A stretch of DNA of 64,000 bases, taken from NCBI GenBank assembly GCA_937863835.1, contig CALMHT010000180.1, forward strand, positions 5,395 through 69,394. The letters are read 5' to 3'. The notes below the pieces were generated by a model. That model was not told the origin of the DNA. It saw only the letters and a program-made list of their open reading frames with translations, and did not search any database. Below are positions 49,133 to 55,733 of this stretch, in pieces. The translations under genes and the position numbers were made by a program. This DNA comes from an uncultured Prevotella sp. GTDB lineage: Bacteria > Bacteroidota > Bacteroidia > Bacteroidales > Bacteroidaceae. Every line of letters begins with the position of its first letter. The stretch's first letter is position 1.

Positions 49133-49167
49133 GAATCCCGAAAGTTATTGTTTAACTTTCGGGATTC
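49133..49167 (-). terminator. Intrinsic terminator after the QueD-like gene
   Basis: GAATCCCGAAAGTTA-TTGTT-TAACTTTCGGGATTC perfect 15-bp stem, with a U-tract on the - strand. Confidence 0.88.
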
Positions 49168-49184
49168 AAATGATTATATTTCAC

Positions 49185-49751
49185 TTACTTCTTTTTATAT
49201 CCGCATTTCGGACAAACACCATTTTCGTCTAATGCCACACCGCAGAGAGGACATCTGTCGACTGTTCCGCTTGGATTAAATTCAGCCGATGCAATATTCA
49301 CACCGCTCACAAAAGTAATCTTGGCGATTTTCAGTTTGTCTTTCAATAAATCATATACTATCTTAATCATTCCCTCGACAGTCATCGTTTCTTTTGTGAC
49401 CACGAGACGGCAGTCGGGATAAGCAGTGCAGAGTTCTGTCTTGAAAGCCTCGCCTTTCATCTTATTCTGTGGATGACCGTTCTTGATGCCTTGTTTTTCG
49501 TATACATCGAGGATAGCCGGGAGCAGAGGATCGTCCTCGCGGAGAATGAGTGCATGATCAAAATTCTTGATAACGCTCCATGCCACTTTCTGAATCTCAT
49601 TGCATGGATAAACCATATTTACGCCCTTTTCTACAGTGTCTTCTACTTCGATTGTCAATTTACCAGTGTGACCGTGAAGATACTGAGCTTCACCTTGGAA
49701 GCGATAGAAACGGTGTGCGTACTGGATGTCAAATGTTGTGATACTTCTCAT
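49185..49751 (-). CDS. QueD/PTPS-family (T-fold) paralog lacking the catalytic Cys, with a C-terminal CxxC-x9-CxxC metal ribbon
   Basis: Zn ligands H13 (YAHRF) and H26/H28 (LHGH); FDHALIL; TVE pterin-binding Glu; C-terminus CPLCGVALDENGVCPKCGYKK. Confidence 0.8.
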   Translation of the reverse strand: MRSITTFDIQYAHRFYRFQGEAQYLHGHTGKLTIEVEDTVEKGVNMVYPCNEIQKVAWSVIKNFDHALILREDDPLLPAILDVYEKQGIKNGHPQNKMKGEAFKTELCTAYPDCRLVVTKETMTVEGMIKIVYDLLKDKLKIAKITFVSGVNIASAEFNPSGTVDRCPLCGVALDENGVCPKCGYKKK

Positions 49752-49792: not shown

Positions 49793-49858
49793 CAAAGATA
49801 ATATATTTATTGATAGATTCCAACAGATAAAAGTTATCGTCTCATTGATAAAATCTAT
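49793..49858 (-). promoter_or_regulatory. Promoter of the QueD-like gene: -7 TATCTTTG (49793-49800), -33-like GTTG (49821-49824) and OxyR/LysR-like operator (49823-49858)
   Basis: + strand ACAG-ATAAAAG-TTAT-N6-ATTG-ATAAAAT-CTAT resembles ATAG-N7-CTAT-N7-ATAG-N7-CTAT; a third partial copy lies at 49809-49823. Confidence 0.55.
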
Positions 49859-49890
49859 ATTGCTGCAGTGCTTGCTATATCAAGCATTTC

Positions 49891-50784
49891 TTATTTGTCA
49901 GGTTCAGTAAAAGAAAATATCTTATCGAGAATATCCCTCTTTCGTGTGCATTGTCCGAATTCAGCACCTTTATCTTCATCCGTATCGTTGATTTCGCATA
50001 TACCTATATAGTGAAACAATCGGTTAAATGTTCTATAACCATAGGCATCAACTTCGTAATATAAGAGATCAGGAAATGCTTTGAAATACTTTTCGGCATA
50101 AAAATCCATATTATGCCATTCTTCACCATAATGATGTAGTAACCACAGAGAATACAATCTGCCTATATTTGCTACTTCCTCACCTTCGAACGAATCAAAA
50201 TAGGCTACATTGAAATTCATAAACATAAAATACATCAATGTATGGAATATGGTATTACCATCATTCAGTAATTTTTTTCCTTTAGAAGTCAACGACATCT
50301 TGCCTGTACGAATCTTGATAAAACCGCATGATTTCAGAGCTATGTGCAATACCCGAACCACCTCCACCCTTTGTTCTGTCTTCTGTTTGTAATAATTAGA
50401 ATTCCAATCTTCCAATCCCATTCCGTATAATTCACTGACCAATTTAGGTGGGATATAACCTTGTGGCGTGAGCTTCAGCTCTTTTCCATCCAGCAATCGC
50501 ATAAGATAGAGAGCCTGTTTCATAAATGGAATCTCTTCTATTTCTTCATCCTTCAACGTTTTCAGTTGAATAGGGCACCCTTCTTCAAATGGCCTGTCGA
50601 GAAGATAATGCATTTGAACGGGCGAGAAGCCATGAAACCTTTCTTGTGGCTTAATATTCTGTTCTTCTGTCCTTTTTTGAAGAAACATATTCAAATCGCT
50701 CAAACTCGGTGATTGCCCGTGCTTTACCAGCTCATCAATGTAAGCCTGCAACTGCTTTGTTATTTCTTTAGAGACTTCGTTCAT
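49891..50784 (-). CDS. Hypothetical protein with winged-helix-like motifs
   Basis: 297-aa open frame. KLTPQGYIPPKLVSELY and LKSCGFIKIRTGKMSLTSKGKKLL resemble wHTH recognition-helix/wing segments. Start set at MNEVSKE. Confidence 0.6.
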   Translation of the reverse strand: MNEVSKEITKQLQAYIDELVKHGQSPSLSDLNMFLQKRTEEQNIKPQERFHGFSPVQMHYLLDRPFEEGCPIQLKTLKDEEIEEIPFMKQALYLMRLLDGKELKLTPQGYIPPKLVSELYGMGLEDWNSNYYKQKTEQRVEVVRVLHIALKSCGFIKIRTGKMSLTSKGKKLLNDGNTIFHTLMYFMFMNFNVAYFDSFEGEEVANIGRLYSLWLLHHYGEEWHNMDFYAEKYFKAFPDLLYYEVDAYGYRTFNRLFHYIGICEINDTDEDKGAEFGQCTRKRDILDKIFSFTEPDK

Positions 50785-51054
50785 GTGGCTATTTTTATTA
50801 GTTTTAATTTTCTCATTAATTGCTATTCCATAGTAAATTAAAGACTTGAGAATAGACATCAGGATATGTGATTTTGATTCTGCAAGTCAAATCCAAAGGT
50901 GTTTTCTTACATACATAATATTGCAATATTAAAGATAATGATGCAAATATACTTCTTTTTTGATATAATAACGATATGGTGGCAAAAAAAATTCCCTGCT
51001 TCTCGCTCGATTTTATTTTTTCTTCATATCTTTACCCCCAAAATATATCAGATT

Positions 51055-51981
51055 ATGAGTTTGCAACAATTGGAATACCTCATCGCAGTGGACCGCTTCC
51101 GCCATTTCGGCAAGGCAGCCGACTACTGCAACGTGACTCAACCAACACTGAGCGCCATGATTCAGAAGTTGGAAGAAGAACTAGGCGTGAAACTGCTTGA
51201 CCGCACTGTGCATCCCCTGGAACCCACCAAAATCGGACTATTGGTTCTGGAACAGGCACGGAAGGCATTGTACAGTGCCCGACATATCAAGGATATCGTA
51301 TACGAACAGAAAAACTCGTTCGAAGGTACGTTCAATCTAGGCATCATCCCCACCATTGCCCCGTATCTCATACCCCGTTTTTTCCCCCAACTGGCCAACA
51401 ATCACCCCGAAATGGATATCAGGATTACAGATATGAAGACGGAGGATATTAAGGAGGCTATCCGTACAGGCGATATTGATGCCGGTATCGTGGCAGACCT
51501 GGACGATATGGATAATTTTGAAAAGACGGATTTATACTATGAGGAACTCTTCGTATATGTATCCCCCGAAGACAAACTTATCAGTTATGACAAGATCAAG
51601 GACAAGGATCTGAACGGAGAATTTCTCTGGCTTTTAGGCGAAGGTCACTGCATGAGTCAACAGTTGCAGAAGTTCTGCAATCTCAAGCATGCAGCAAGAA
51701 GTGAACGAGCTTATCGCTTAGGTAGTCTGGAGACTTTTATGCGCATGGTGGAAGGCGGCAGAGGCGTGACCTTCATCCCCGAACTTGCCGTGAAGCAACT
51801 GACTGAAGATAAGCGCAAACTAGTGCGTTCGTTTGCCATCCCAACTCCCACACGACATACCATCATCATCACTCGCAGAAACTTCATCCGTAAGTCTATC
51901 CTTAAGTTGATTACGGAAAGCATTCTGAAATCAATTCCGGCTGATATGATGAAGTTGAAACCGCATCAGCAAAAAGTATAA
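51055..51981 (+). CDS. oxyR: Hydrogen peroxide-inducible genes activator OxyR (LysR family)
   Basis: LQQLEYLIAV..F.HF..AA..C.VTQPTLS HTH; GIIPTIAPYL; redox pair GHC-x8-C (GHCMSQQLQKFC); 308 aa from the ATG at 51055. Confidence 0.93.
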   Translation: MSLQQLEYLIAVDRFRHFGKAADYCNVTQPTLSAMIQKLEEELGVKLLDRTVHPLEPTKIGLLVLEQARKALYSARHIKDIVYEQKNSFEGTFNLGIIPTIAPYLIPRFFPQLANNHPEMDIRITDMKTEDIKEAIRTGDIDAGIVADLDDMDNFEKTDLYYEELFVYVSPEDKLISYDKIKDKDLNGEFLWLLGEGHCMSQQLQKFCNLKHAARSERAYRLGSLETFMRMVEGGRGVTFIPELAVKQLTEDKRKLVRSFAIPTPTRHTIIITRRNFIRKSILKLITESILKSIPADMMKLKPHQQKV

Positions 51982-53062: not shown

Positions 53063-53866
53063 TTATATACGAAACCGTATGTAAGCCCGGTCATCAAATG
53101 ATTTGTTACCTAGCATCCATCCTTTCGTAGCTTTAAAATGGAGGTAGCACAAAGGGTCTTGCTGTAAAATGTCAGTTAGTGCCTTTTCACTTTCATCTAG
53201 GGATGACTTTAATATCGGATAGCCGTCTGAAGCCAATACGATTTCGTCGTTTTCGTTTACATGTAGAATCTTAATCTTTTCCATGGGTACCGAAAAGCCG
53301 TCAATCACAGCATAATCAATGTTTTGTCGTTGTGTCGCAGTTATCAGATCATCATATATATAGTCTCTTCCTGTGTCGTGTTTCCGCAATTCGGTTATTG
53401 TCACACCTTCAGCTATGGATTTCCGTATGAAATCACTACGTTTAGACGCATTCTCTGTTTCTGTAGGTTTGGGATTATCGTAAAGTTGGCCATTGATAAG
53501 ACATTGACAATCGCCAACCATCCATATCTCTTTCCTTGTTTTACTATAACAGATAGCACTCGCTGTGGTACGCTGGTGAGGATATTGCTTCATCTCTGGG
53601 ATGATGCCTTTGTCTTGATATGCCTTCATGATCCTGTCTGTAGCTATAGAACAGAATGTTTGAACGTCACAGTCTTTTTTCAGGTGCTCGATGACTTCTG
53701 AGATATTCTGCATACAGTATTGACCGTTGCTCATATTTTGACAGAAACGAGTGGATGTCTTACTCGTACTTCCGTCTATTACCGCTATGAAATTTTCGGT
53801 CGTTACGATCCCGTCTTCGCATTTCTGCTGACTGATCTTTCCTGTTATTTGCTGCTCGATTATCAT
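53063..53866 (-). CDS. PP2C/PPM-like metal-dependent phosphatase-fold protein
   Basis: CEDG, AVIDGST, VGDC, LASDG and FDDR correspond to PPM motifs 1, 2, 5, 8 and 11. Confidence 0.7.
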   Translation of the reverse strand: MIIEQQITGKISQQKCEDGIVTTENFIAVIDGSTSKTSTRFCQNMSNGQYCMQNISEVIEHLKKDCDVQTFCSIATDRIMKAYQDKGIIPEMKQYPHQRTTASAICYSKTRKEIWMVGDCQCLINGQLYDNPKPTETENASKRSDFIRKSIAEGVTITELRKHDTGRDYIYDDLITATQRQNIDYAVIDGFSVPMEKIKILHVNENDEIVLASDGYPILKSSLDESEKALTDILQQDPLCYLHFKATKGWMLGNKSFDDRAYIRFRI

Positions 53867-55733
53867 TGTTCATGTTGTTTCTTGAGTCGAATGTATTTGA
53901 CCTGCCATTTCCGCTATATAACAAAGGGATGATGTCTGTACGTCCTATCTTACGCAGTTCGTTTTCGATATTGCGCCGTTCTTCAGGTTTATACCAGAAA
54001 AAGAACTGTCGCTGTGCCAATTTTTCACGTGGAGTCTTGGCGCTGAACACGGGTTCCAGTGTATATGGGTCGAAACCTGTATACCATGTTTCTGTACTGA
54101 CTGTCATCGGAGTAGGGGTAAAGTCCTGTACCTGTTCCAAATGAAAATCAAGACGTTTGGTAATCGCAGCGAGTTCCGCCATATCTGCTTCTTTACACCC
54201 CGGGTGACTGCTGATGAAATAGGGAATCAGTTGTTCCCTGAGATTCTCTTCTTTATTGATCTTGTCAAAGACTTGTTTGAATTCCTCAAACTGTTTAAAA
54301 CTTGGTTTGCGCATCAGGTGTAATACCTTGTCGCTGGTATGTTCAGGGGCTACTTTAAGTCGTCCGCTTACATGCTTGCAAATCAGTTCTTTAGTATATT
54401 TACGCGCAGCTTCGTTGGCATGCTCGTCTTTACTTTTGTACAACAGTAGATCGTAACGCACACCACTACCGATAAAACTCTTCTTGATGCCCGGTATCGC
54501 ATCCACGGTATGGTATATGTCGAGTAGACGGGTATGATCGGTATCTAGATTCGGACAGATCTGCGGATTGATACAACTGGGGCGTTTACATTTCTCGCAT
54601 ATATTCTTATTGTGGCCAGCCATACCGTACATATTGGCGGACGGTCCACCCAAATCGGAGAGATAACCTTTAAAGTCGGGAAGTTCCATCACTTTCTTCA
54701 CCTCGTTTACAATACTTTCCTTACTGCGGCAAGAGATAAATTTACCTTGGTGTGCACTGATGGTGCAAAATGCGCATCCACCGAAACATCCTCTGTGAAT
54801 GTTGACAGAGAATTTAATCATATCATAAGCCGGAATACGTTTGCCTTTATATTTGGGATGGGGCAGACGCGTATAAGGATATTCGAAAGAAGTGTCCAGT
54901 TCTTCGGTTGTCAATGGAGGATAAGGAGGGTTTACTACAGCAAACAGTCCATCTACTTCCTGTATAAGTCTTTGGGCATGCATCTTATTCGACTCTTCCT
55001 CTATATGTCTGAAGTTTTCCGCTTCAGCCTTTTTGTCATGGAGACATTCTTCGTGAGAATGGAGAACGATATCATTGTCATTGATACCTTCGGGTATATC
55101 TTCTTTCTTTGACAGATATACCGTCTGGGGAATATCTCTTATATCCTTCACTGCAACACCTGACGATAATTTTTCACAGAGTTGAACAATCGGTTTTTCA
55201 CCCATACCGTATATAATCATATCAGCTTTAGAATCGCACAATATGCAGCGCATGAGTTTGTCTTGCCAATAATCGTAATGAGTAAGCCGACGCATCGACG
55301 CCTCTATACCTCCAAGAATAATAGGCACATCCGGATATAGATTCCTGAGTATATTGGAATAGACTATAGTAGGATATTCAGGACGACAGTCATGCCGCCC
55401 GTCCGGACTATAAGCGTCTTCTGAGCGTAACCGCCTGTTGGCGGTATATTTGTTGACCATAGAATCCATACATCCCGGAGCGATGCCAAAAAAGAGTCGT
55501 GGCCGACCAAGTTTTTTAAAGTCTCTGAAATCGCCATGCCAGTCAGGTTGTGGAACGATTGCTACTTTATAACCTTGAGCCTCTAATGTACGACCAATTA
55601 CGGCAGCTCCGAATGATGGGTGGTCTACGTATGCGTCAGCAGAGAAGAGGATGATGTCCAATTCCGACCATCCTCTCAACTCCACTTCCTTTTTTGTTGT
55701 TGGTAACCAATCTGTCAGTCTGTATTCTTTCAT
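53760..55733 (-). CDS. YgiQ-family (UPF0313) radical SAM protein
   Basis: DAYVDHPSFG, GIEAS.RR..HYDYW, RGCFGGCAFC (CxxxCxxC), DLGGPSANMY, LKVAPEH, YFISSHPG and QVQDFTPTP. Confidence 0.94.
   Translation of the reverse strand: MKEYRLTDWLPTTKKEVELRGWSELDIILFSADAYVDHPSFGAAVIGRTLEAQGYKVAIVPQPDWHGDFRDFKKLGRPRLFFGIAPGCMDSMVNKYTANRRLRSEDAYSPDGRHDCRPEYPTIVYSNILRNLYPDVPIILGGIEASMRRLTHYDYWQDKLMRCILCDSKADMIIYGMGEKPIVQLCEKLSSGVAVKDIRDIPQTVYLSKKEDIPEGINDNDIVLHSHEECLHDKKAEAENFRHIEEESNKMHAQRLIQEVDGLFAVVNPPYPPLTTEELDTSFEYPYTRLPHPKYKGKRIPAYDMIKFSVNIHRGCFGGCAFCTISAHQGKFISCRSKESIVNEVKKVMELPDFKGYLSDLGGPSANMYGMAGHNKNICEKCKRPSCINPQICPNLDTDHTRLLDIYHTVDAIPGIKKSFIGSGVRYDLLLYKSKDEHANEAARKYTKELICKHVSGRLKVAPEHTSDKVLHLMRKPSFKQFEEFKQVFDKINKEENLREQLIPYFISSHPGCKEADMAELAAITKRLDFHLEQVQDFTPTPMTVSTETWYTGFDPYTLEPVFSAKTPREKLAQRQFFFWYKPEERRNIENELRKIGRTDIIPLLYSGNGRSNTFDSRNNMNNDNRAANNRKDQSAEMRRRDRNDRKFHSGNRRKYE

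Follow-up and report, generated by a model that had tools for sequence, protein, structure and literature searches.

What does a QueD-like protein do once it lacks the residues by which the known enzymes of its superfamily are recognized? The question is raised by one gene in a 64,000-nt stretch of DNA from an uncultured Prevotella sp. (GenBank assembly GCA_937863835.1, contig CALMHT010000180.1, positions 5,395 to 69,394), hereafter the window. The gene lies on the minus strand at 49185..49751 (stop codon at 49185-49187; coordinates are window positions unless a contig or locus is named). Its open reading frame (ORF), which matches the Pfam PTPS family PF01242, encodes a 188-amino-acid (aa) protein with the QueD/PTPS fold and a C-terminal tail of four cysteines (Cys4). 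We found that it represents a subfamily of its own within the PTPS fold, in which the active site is remodelled. This subfamily is independent of the pterin pathway, extremely conserved and consistently wired to PerR-like, OxyR or rubrerythrin loci. We give an even chance to the explanation that the gene is an effector of peroxide or oxygen stress, probably a redox-linked metalloenzyme, and not an enzyme of queuosine or folate synthesis. The subfamily is probably an unrecognized oxidative-stress defence protein of gut anaerobes.

A remodelled PTPS-fold active site

The 188-aa protein scored 48.6 bits against PF01242 (cut-off 22.4), which places it in the superfamily. Its score against the QueD equivalog model TIGR03367 was 47.4 bits, with a cut-off of 89.25. 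The AlphaFold2 (AF2) model (mean predicted local distance difference test score, pLDDT, 84.5) shows a T-fold with an insertion of about 45 residues between helices 1 and 2, at residues 67-119, and a C-terminal extension at residues 158-188. The T-fold domain comprises residues 1-157 (49281..49751, minus strand), as delimited by invariant columns, the AF2 secondary structure and alignments to QueD and PTPS chains. A Foldseek search with this model returned 33 matches at E ≤ 0.001, all of them PTPS or QueD chains. WS1659 ranked first (3jyg, E 9.5e-10), followed by QueD2 of Acinetobacter baumannii (7v0f) and then by QueD chains.

The metal-binding part of the active site is intact. The three His residues H13, H26 and H28 are invariant among 29 relatives, the Asp65-His66 dyad is retained, and so is T124-x-E126 at the start of helix 2; the kept His triad and TxE Glu had both been read correctly in an earlier prediction made from the sequence alone (the original prediction). 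The catalytic part has changed. In the HGH-region motif, G20-E21-A22-Q23-Y24-L25-H26-G27-H28, alignment to Pseudomonas and E. coli QueD puts Ala22, four residues before HGH, at the site of the Cys of the QueD motif Cx3HGH. This position is Ala in more than 90% of the family and Glu in one divergent relative, P0169. Gln23, at -3, falls on the Glu of the PTPS-III motif ExxHGH when aligned to Plasmodium PTPS (FKGFRETLHGH). Glu21, at -5, is invariant in the relatives. QueD2 has a catalytic Cys in the motif Cx4HGH, along with a conserved Cys or His five residues before it (PMC9894224), and Glu21 therefore occupies the place of the QueD2 catalytic Cys.

The substrate-binding part is altered as well. 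The protein reads VYPCNEIQK in place of IIDFAELK of QueD. Strand 3 (residues 142-149 in the AF2 model) ends in T146-F147-V148-S149-G150 and contains neither Glu nor Gln, with the position of the pterin-anchoring Glu mapped by alignment and secondary structure rather than from a solved structure. Across the relatives this end reads T-F-V/T-S-G with F147, S149 and G150 invariant, and the anchoring Glu is thus missing from the family. Since the motif features are invariant across the 29 relatives, they are not due to chance.

These results bear out most of what the original prediction had said of the motifs, namely the change of the Cx3HGH Cys to Ala, the change of the DF motif to PC, the loss of the C-terminal (W)ET Glu, and the failure to match the motifs of QueD, PTPS-II or PTPS-III with a Glu at -5, to which the failed QueD equivalog cut-off can be added. 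Its description of the protein as Cys-less holds for the catalytic position only, because Cys50 is invariant in the family. The original prediction had not noticed the match of Glu21 with the QueD2 Cys, nor the conservation between phyla and the OxyR, PerR and rubrerythrin surroundings described below. On the evidence of these motifs, the protein is neither a QueD, a PTPS-II nor a PTPS-III.

Hosts, conservation and the pterin pathways

Members of the family abound in gut and rumen metagenomes, with 3192 clusters at 90% identity (E ≤ 0.001), some of which hold more than 1000 member sequences. Conservation and gene context were examined with the best 80 of at least 385 loci that encode relatives in species-representative genomes. 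These 80 relatives, isolates included, share 82-89% protein identity across at least seven phyla, and their hosts are found in Bacteroidota (35), Bacillota (31), Fibrobacterota, Lentisphaerota, Spirochaetota, Verrucomicrobiota and Desulfovibrionaceae. Identity at the DNA level is just 69-77% and ends at the ORF borders. The proportion of differing synonymous sites (pS, 0.80-0.94) is saturated, and that of nonsynonymous sites (pN) is 0.06-0.11. GC content at third codon positions (GC3) of the gene varies from 0.22 to 0.92 and tracks that of the flanks (r = 0.84). Recent horizontal transfer as the source of the high protein identity is ruled out by the low, ORF-confined DNA identity, the saturated synonymous sites and the host-tracking GC3. 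In the protein tree, phyla are clustered far beyond chance (10 label changes against 33 in shuffles) with several cross-phylum placements, and the copy in the window groups weakly with Lentisphaerota and Akkermansia. The saturated pS, low pN, host-tracking GC3 and clustering by phylum indicate that the family has long resided in its hosts, with occasional transfers, and that purifying selection on it is unusually strong.

The protein is more conserved between phyla than EF-Tu, yet it has no assigned function. Between the Prevotella genome and four hosts outside its phylum (Akkermansia, Gemmiger, Treponema and Fibrobacter), identity is 61-71% for EF-Tu and 83-85% for the 188-aa protein. A protein without enzymatic activity that attaches to a conserved macromolecule such as the ribosome, tRNA or DNA by its basic Cys4 tail, which ends in GYKKK, would explain such identity at saturated synonymous sites and conservation above EF-Tu. 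We nevertheless regard this as very unlikely, because all the metal and dyad residues of the active site are invariant, relatives without a tail exist, and no conserved link to translation or repair genes was seen in the 80 loci.

We next consider whether the gene could serve queuosine or folate synthesis. The Prevotella genome is 99.7% complete and the gene is its sole PF01242 match. The genome retains QueC (C4:14045-14653), QueF (C172:13405-13638), TGT (C5:12615-13691), two QueA paralogs (C49:31846-32970 and C90:7124-8305), FolE and FolB. As the original prediction had noted, none of queC, queE and folE is found in the window; in the genome they are on other contigs or missing. QueE is among the missing: the QueE model TIGR04508 had no match in this genome, although the model does match other QueE types in control genomes, and the QueE and QueD of a same-genus genome had no match here as tblastn queries. 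That relative carries a canonical queE-queD operon (L021 7040-7904), and the DNA flanking it is syntenic with an internal part of Prevotella contig C47, so that the operon is truly missing and not lost in an assembly gap. A census of radical S-adenosylmethionine (SAM) proteins was made for QueE substitutes and returned MiaB, RimO, MtaB, HemW-like, PflA, MnmL and RlmN proteins together with an unassigned 259-aa protein; none of them is QueE-like. The 259-aa protein (C49:35951-36418, plus strand; CTFDCIYC motif) is encoded about 3 kb from queA and has weak matches to viperin and tungsten-maturase models only. The retention of queC, queF, tgt and queA with neither queD nor queE suggests salvage of a 7-deazaguanine precursor or a decaying pathway.

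The original prediction had named one finding that would speak against it, a sole queD homolog in a genome with a full que pathway. The gene is the sole PF01242 gene, but the pathway is not full, since QueE and the canonical queE-queD operon are missing. Its call for a separate queD and folB was answered in part: FolB is present, and a canonical queD was not found in this genome. Relatives supply the latter. The long form occurs in 6 of 81 genomes of the same GTDB family, and four of the six also have a canonical QueD of about 100 bits; the long form is therefore a paralog and not a replacement.

The wider set of hosts argues against H2NTP as the conserved substrate. FolE is missing in 17 of 40 host genomes, and 14 of the 17, including the isolate Gemmiger formicilis An812, lack FolE2 as well. 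In none of these 14 was a canonical QueD found, and their PF01242 matches are of the long form with one exception. The exception (G103:C84:16271-16597), a 174-aa ORF in a Lachnospira metagenome-assembled genome (MAG), scores 57 bits and is neither a canonical QueD nor the tailed form. The co-occurrence with GTP cyclohydrolase I and QueE/QueC that marks a QueD is thus broken in 14 of 40 hosts, and in the Prevotella genome by the absence of QueE. Every characterized COG0720 enzyme uses H2NTP (7,8-dihydroneopterin triphosphate) or its monophosphate as the substrate (PMC5041015). Since 14 hosts have no FolE, FolE2 or canonical QueD and make none of it, H2NTP is not the conserved substrate and the conserved function of the family must differ. 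The original prediction of a pterin- or purine-binding protein is doubtful for this reason and because the anchoring Glu is absent. Its broader claim, that a new function of the T-fold is likely, is strengthened by the failed motifs, the canonical QueD found alongside in four of six relatives and the hosts without GTP cyclohydrolase I.

Two pterin enzymes can be weighed on these data. One is a stress-proof isozyme of QueD or QueD2, in which Glu21 replaces an oxidation-prone Cys and which makes 6-carboxytetrahydropterin (CPH4) from H2NTP for queuosine. It would account for a sole PF01242 gene in a genome with queC, queF, tgt and queA, for the retained His triad and Asp-His dyad, for QueD2 as the second-best fold match, and for Glu21 at the Cys position of Cx4HGH (PMC9894224). 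However, without QueE any CPH4 made in this genome could not be carried further, the Glu that anchors pterins has been lost, and the TIGR03367 score is about half of its cut-off. With the 14 hosts and the coexisting canonical QueD in addition, we consider such an isozyme highly improbable. The other is PTPS-III-like cleavage of H2NTP to 6-hydroxymethyl-7,8-dihydropterin, a FolB bypass by which folate would be rebuilt after oxidative loss. A change of Cys to Glu does separate PTPS-III from PTPS-I/II (PMC5041015) and Glu21 is invariant. Yet the PTPS-III position is occupied by Gln, strand 3 has no anchoring Glu, the genome encodes FolB and 14 of 40 hosts lack GTP cyclohydrolase I. This makes it the least probable reading that we weighed.

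The automatic annotation of these proteins as 6-carboxytetrahydropterin synthases is almost certainly wrong. The family is an example of the PTPS scaffold leaving pterin chemistry altogether.

Promoter and gene neighbourhood

The gene has its own promoter and ends in an intrinsic terminator 18 nt past the stop codon (49133..49167, minus strand; a 15-pair stem with 6 G-C pairs, then TTTTT), in agreement with the predicted monocistronic unit and strong terminator. The -7 box TATCTTTG (49793..49800, minus strand) is of the Bacteroidetes type. In an alignment of 11 promoter regions the pattern TAnnTTTG is conserved, with a near-invariant T at position 1. TAnnTTTG is the Bacteroides promoter consensus.

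Alignment with related promoters also places an OxyR-type operator, ATAGATTTTATCAAT-GAGACG-ATAACTTTTATCTGT, at 49823..49858 (minus strand), and its second half overlaps the -33 region. In a scan of 220 nt upstream at 79 loci, the exact OxyR half-operator ATAG-N7-CTAT was found at 10 loci, all at -105 to -138 (background 0.44% per scan window). The Per box of the B. subtilis type, TTATAATNATTATAA, was found at 6 of the 79 with at most two mismatches (background 0.19%). The two types of boxes are enriched about 30-40 fold and all are in loci with no adjacent Fur-family gene. The promoter of the window aligns with the 10 OxyR-box promoters as ATAGAT-N5-TCTAT, a 6-nt spacer, AT(A/T)G-N7-CTGT/CAGT and then TAnnTTTG. 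The operator in the window carries weight because of this column-for-column alignment with exact boxes and because an oxyR gene lies 1.3 kb upstream.

This LysR-family oxyR (51055..51981, plus strand), the probable regulator, is transcribed away from the QueD-like gene. It matches the OxyR model NF008361 at 220.6 bits (E 2.8e-65), which does not reach the curated cut-off of 329 bits, and the alignment starts at ORF residue 53. Three 99%-complete genomes from the same genus yielded no protein match to this OxyR at E ≤ 1e-30, and a DNA search of them gave nothing useful either. A 322-aa ORF (49891..50859, minus strand) with no Pfam or NCBIfam match lies between oxyR and the QueD-like gene, with a hairpin at 49867-49888 after its stop codon. 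It was not found beside the QueD-like gene in the 80 related loci. The block of oxyR, this ORF and the QueD-like gene may be lineage-specific.

Neighbours were counted within 1.5 kb at the 80 loci. A Fur-family gene is the most common one, present at 43 loci and nearly always directly upstream on the same strand with gaps of 9-212 nt. Rubrerythrin (PF02915 plus RUBY_RBDX) is found at 12 loci, mostly directly upstream on the same strand, and OxyR at seven, divergent in six and downstream in one. At least one of the three is present at 56 of the 80 loci, so that the family, by these neighbours and its boxes, and the gene in the window, by its oxyR and aligned operator, are adjacent to a regulator or operator of the OxyR/PerR type. 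Particular arrangements were also observed. In G040, oxyR is divergent from a thioredoxin gene that is followed by the QueD-like gene. At L079 and L111, a Fur-family gene, rubrerythrin and the QueD-like gene follow each other in that order on one strand. A PerR-like gene, rubrerythrin and the QueD-like gene occur together at L048 and L051, where the Fur-family gene is divergent, and at L105 and L106, where rubrerythrin is downstream. Two further genes were recorded, a SufT/DUF59-type Fe-S assembly protein (TIGR02945, 142.6 bits) divergent from the QueD-like gene in a Bacteroidaceae genome (L025 4479-4799 of G015) and, in the window, a YgiQ-family radical-SAM protein at 53760-55733 on the minus strand (PF08497, 443 bits, plus DUF3362).

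The Fur-family neighbours are of three unrelated sequence types. For all six non-Bacteroidota neighbours tested, PerR models were the best match, at scores below their curated cut-offs, and Zur models were weak or absent. A Zur-controlled or low-zinc paralog was judged unlikely, as Zur models gave the weakest match or none. A related possibility is that the protein serves metal homeostasis, as a metal buffer or chaperone or as a paralog used when metal is scarce, under sensors of the Fur, Zur or Irr type that do not respond to peroxide. The prevalence of Fur-family neighbours, of which the Bacteroidota type best matches Irr, is consistent with this, as are two metal sites in 188 aa and the regulation of QueD2 by Zur in other bacteria (PMC9894224). 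On the other hand, oxyR genes, OxyR boxes and rubrerythrin neighbours are not signals of metal limitation, Zur models score lowest or not at all, and an added Cys4 site is the opposite of zinc sparing. We therefore think a role in metal homeostasis improbable, if somewhat less so than either pterin enzyme.

The Cys4 module and the function of the family

The tail, C168-P-L-C171-x9-C181-P-K-C184, consists of two CPxCG knuckles as read from the sequence, and is the CxxC-x9-CxxC element that the original prediction had described. The whole module, RCPLCG-x8-CPKCGYKKK, spans residues 167-188 (49188..49253, minus strand). It is near-invariant in sequence and length among the 80 relatives, and the preceding linker varies. 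The tailed form falls into a single cluster at 50% identity, with P0135, P0169 and P0143 as the few outliers. A search of 1.8 billion representatives recovered nearly only fragments and frameshifted copies of one such cluster, and the same three proteins were its only informative relatives. P0135 (58% identical) and P0169 (about 45%) have no tail, and the P0135 gene overlaps the stop codon of a PerR-like gene in all contigs read but one. P0143, about 57% identical to the 188-aa protein, carries in an N-terminal extension a RUBY_RBDX domain (38.8 bits, cut-off 26.5) in place of the C-terminal tail. Longer proteins of the family that looked like fusions were all chimeric or frameshifted gene calls.

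The explanation that we favour is as follows. In the Prevotella genome, OxyR most likely switches on the gene through the ATAG-N7-CTAT-type operator that overlaps the -33 region. In most other hosts it is the single gene that follows a dedicated PerR-like repressor of the Fur family, or it is placed behind rubrerythrin. The active site retains the three-His metal site and the Asp-His dyad, with a Glu where QueD2 has its catalytic Cys and with the pterin-anchoring Glu lost. The metal of the His3 site, Fe or Zn, may act on an oxidant or on an oxidized small molecule, and the Cys4 module may be a rubredoxin-like entry point for electrons, or at least a metal site. In a sister branch, an N-terminal rubredoxin domain of the rubrerythrin type takes the place of this module. 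We infer that the gene is induced by peroxide or oxygen and that its product is protective. That the His3 site carries out a redox-linked reaction, supplied by way of the Cys4 module, is speculative. One step beyond this, and rather doubtful, is a new class of T-fold enzymes in obligate anaerobes that detoxifies oxidants, where His3-Fe reduces peroxide, superoxide or O2 with electrons delivered by a rubredoxin-like Fe(Cys)4 site under PerR/OxyR control. Such an enzyme would be the T-fold counterpart of rubrerythrin and desulfoferrodoxin.

Several points weigh against an oxidative-stress function with a redox-active tail. The tail scores below cut-off in all Pfam models that it resembles, with E values of 0.41 for RUBY_RBDX and 0.07-0.17 for zinc ribbons, and relatives with no Cys4 module of any kind exist. 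A redox role of the tail is for these reasons one by analogy only. Every Fur-family neighbour scores below the curated PerR cut-offs, and since the Bacteroidota type matches Irr best, an iron, heme or other metal signal is also possible. The OxyR half-site of the window has one mismatch and is not significant in the window when taken alone. When the Prevotella genome was scanned with a weight matrix derived from the 11 aligned operators, four weak matches turned up, none of them at a classical OxyR target, and the scan was uninformative. Finally, MAG incompleteness could account for some of the 14 genomes negative for FolE and FolE2, whose completeness was not reported. It is unlikely, however, that all 14 absences are artefacts.

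The properties of the tail also bear on a non-redox alternative, a Zn-dependent lyase or hydrolase that clears or repairs an oxidized metabolite such as a damaged purine, a folate fragment or a sugar phosphate, with the tail as a structural zinc ribbon. This reading shares the peroxide-regulon context. A Zn(His)3 site of the PTPS type with an Asp-His dyad is acid-base machinery, relatives without a tail occur in the same context, and zinc-ribbon and rubredoxin models fit the tail about equally weakly. Against this, the module that takes the place of the tail in the sister branch is a genuine rubredoxin domain of the rubrerythrin type, a sign of electron transfer, and the data name no candidate substrate. 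We hold the Zn lyase or hydrolase to be a real but minority possibility.

The redox-linked oxidative-stress effector continues to be our preferred explanation. We found no paper that links a PTPS/QueD paralog with PerR, OxyR or rubrerythrin or that describes the tailed family. The function of one group, PTPS-V, has been called unclear (PMC5041015), and the tailed family may be this group. Consistently placed behind dedicated PerR-like repressors, OxyR operators or rubrerythrin, the gene is a concrete candidate, open to testing, for a component still missing from the oxygen tolerance of obligate anaerobes, a question that bears on gut colonization and on the growth of oxygen-sensitive commensals.

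Comparison with known proteins places the subfamily as a compact branch of the lineage of long PTPS/QueD T-folds, with WS1659 and QueD2 as the nearest structures. The uncharacterized WS1659 of Wolinella succinogenes is the best match in the PDB by sequence (E 3e-4) as well as by Foldseek. It equals the window protein in length (188 aa) and shares the long insertion that follows the DH motif and bears the signature DDPL(F/L)P, but it keeps a Cys four residues before HGH (CRHLHGH), lacks a C-terminal Cys4 module and is only 19% identical. QueD2 of A. baumannii, which makes CPH4 for queuosine, is Zur-regulated and has a metal site that takes several metals including Fe(II) (PMC9894224), shares the T-fold core, the long insertion between helices 1 and 2, the C-terminal extension and a catalytic residue five before HGH. 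In the window protein, by contrast, Glu21 and Phe18 stand at the Cys and Cys18/His positions of QueD2, so that Cx4HGH is not present, the anchoring Glu is absent, a Cys4 tail is added and the link is to OxyR/PerR. With QueD/PTPS-I (E. coli, 4ntk) the window protein shares its fold, the two sets of residues formed by the His triad and the Asp-His dyad, and the T-x-E with which helix 2 begins. It departs from QueD in having Ala for the Cx3HGH Cys, no Glu at the end of strand 3, no queC/queE/folE cluster and hosts without GTP cyclohydrolase I. PTPS-III (Plasmodium, 2a0s, and the bacterial FolB bypass) likewise has a carboxylate in place of the catalytic Cys, but its Glu is at -3 (ExxHGH), where the window protein has Gln, with Glu at -5. 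PTPS-III replaces FolB, whereas FolB is present in the Prevotella genome and many hosts of the family lack GTP cyclohydrolase I.

The architecture of the family has its closest parallel outside the superfamily. In rubrerythrin and reverse rubrerythrin, as well as in the 2Fe- and 1Fe-superoxide reductases, a small Cys4 module is attached to one or the other end of a catalytic metal domain or is absent, and these proteins are controlled by PerR/OxyR in anaerobes. The parallel is an analogy and not homology, as those enzymes use a di-iron four-helix bundle or an Fe(His)4Cys beta-barrel where the window protein has a T-fold with a His3 site, in which a redox role is putative. What they share is a Cys4 module that can move or be missing, and in P0143 that module is itself of the rubrerythrin type.

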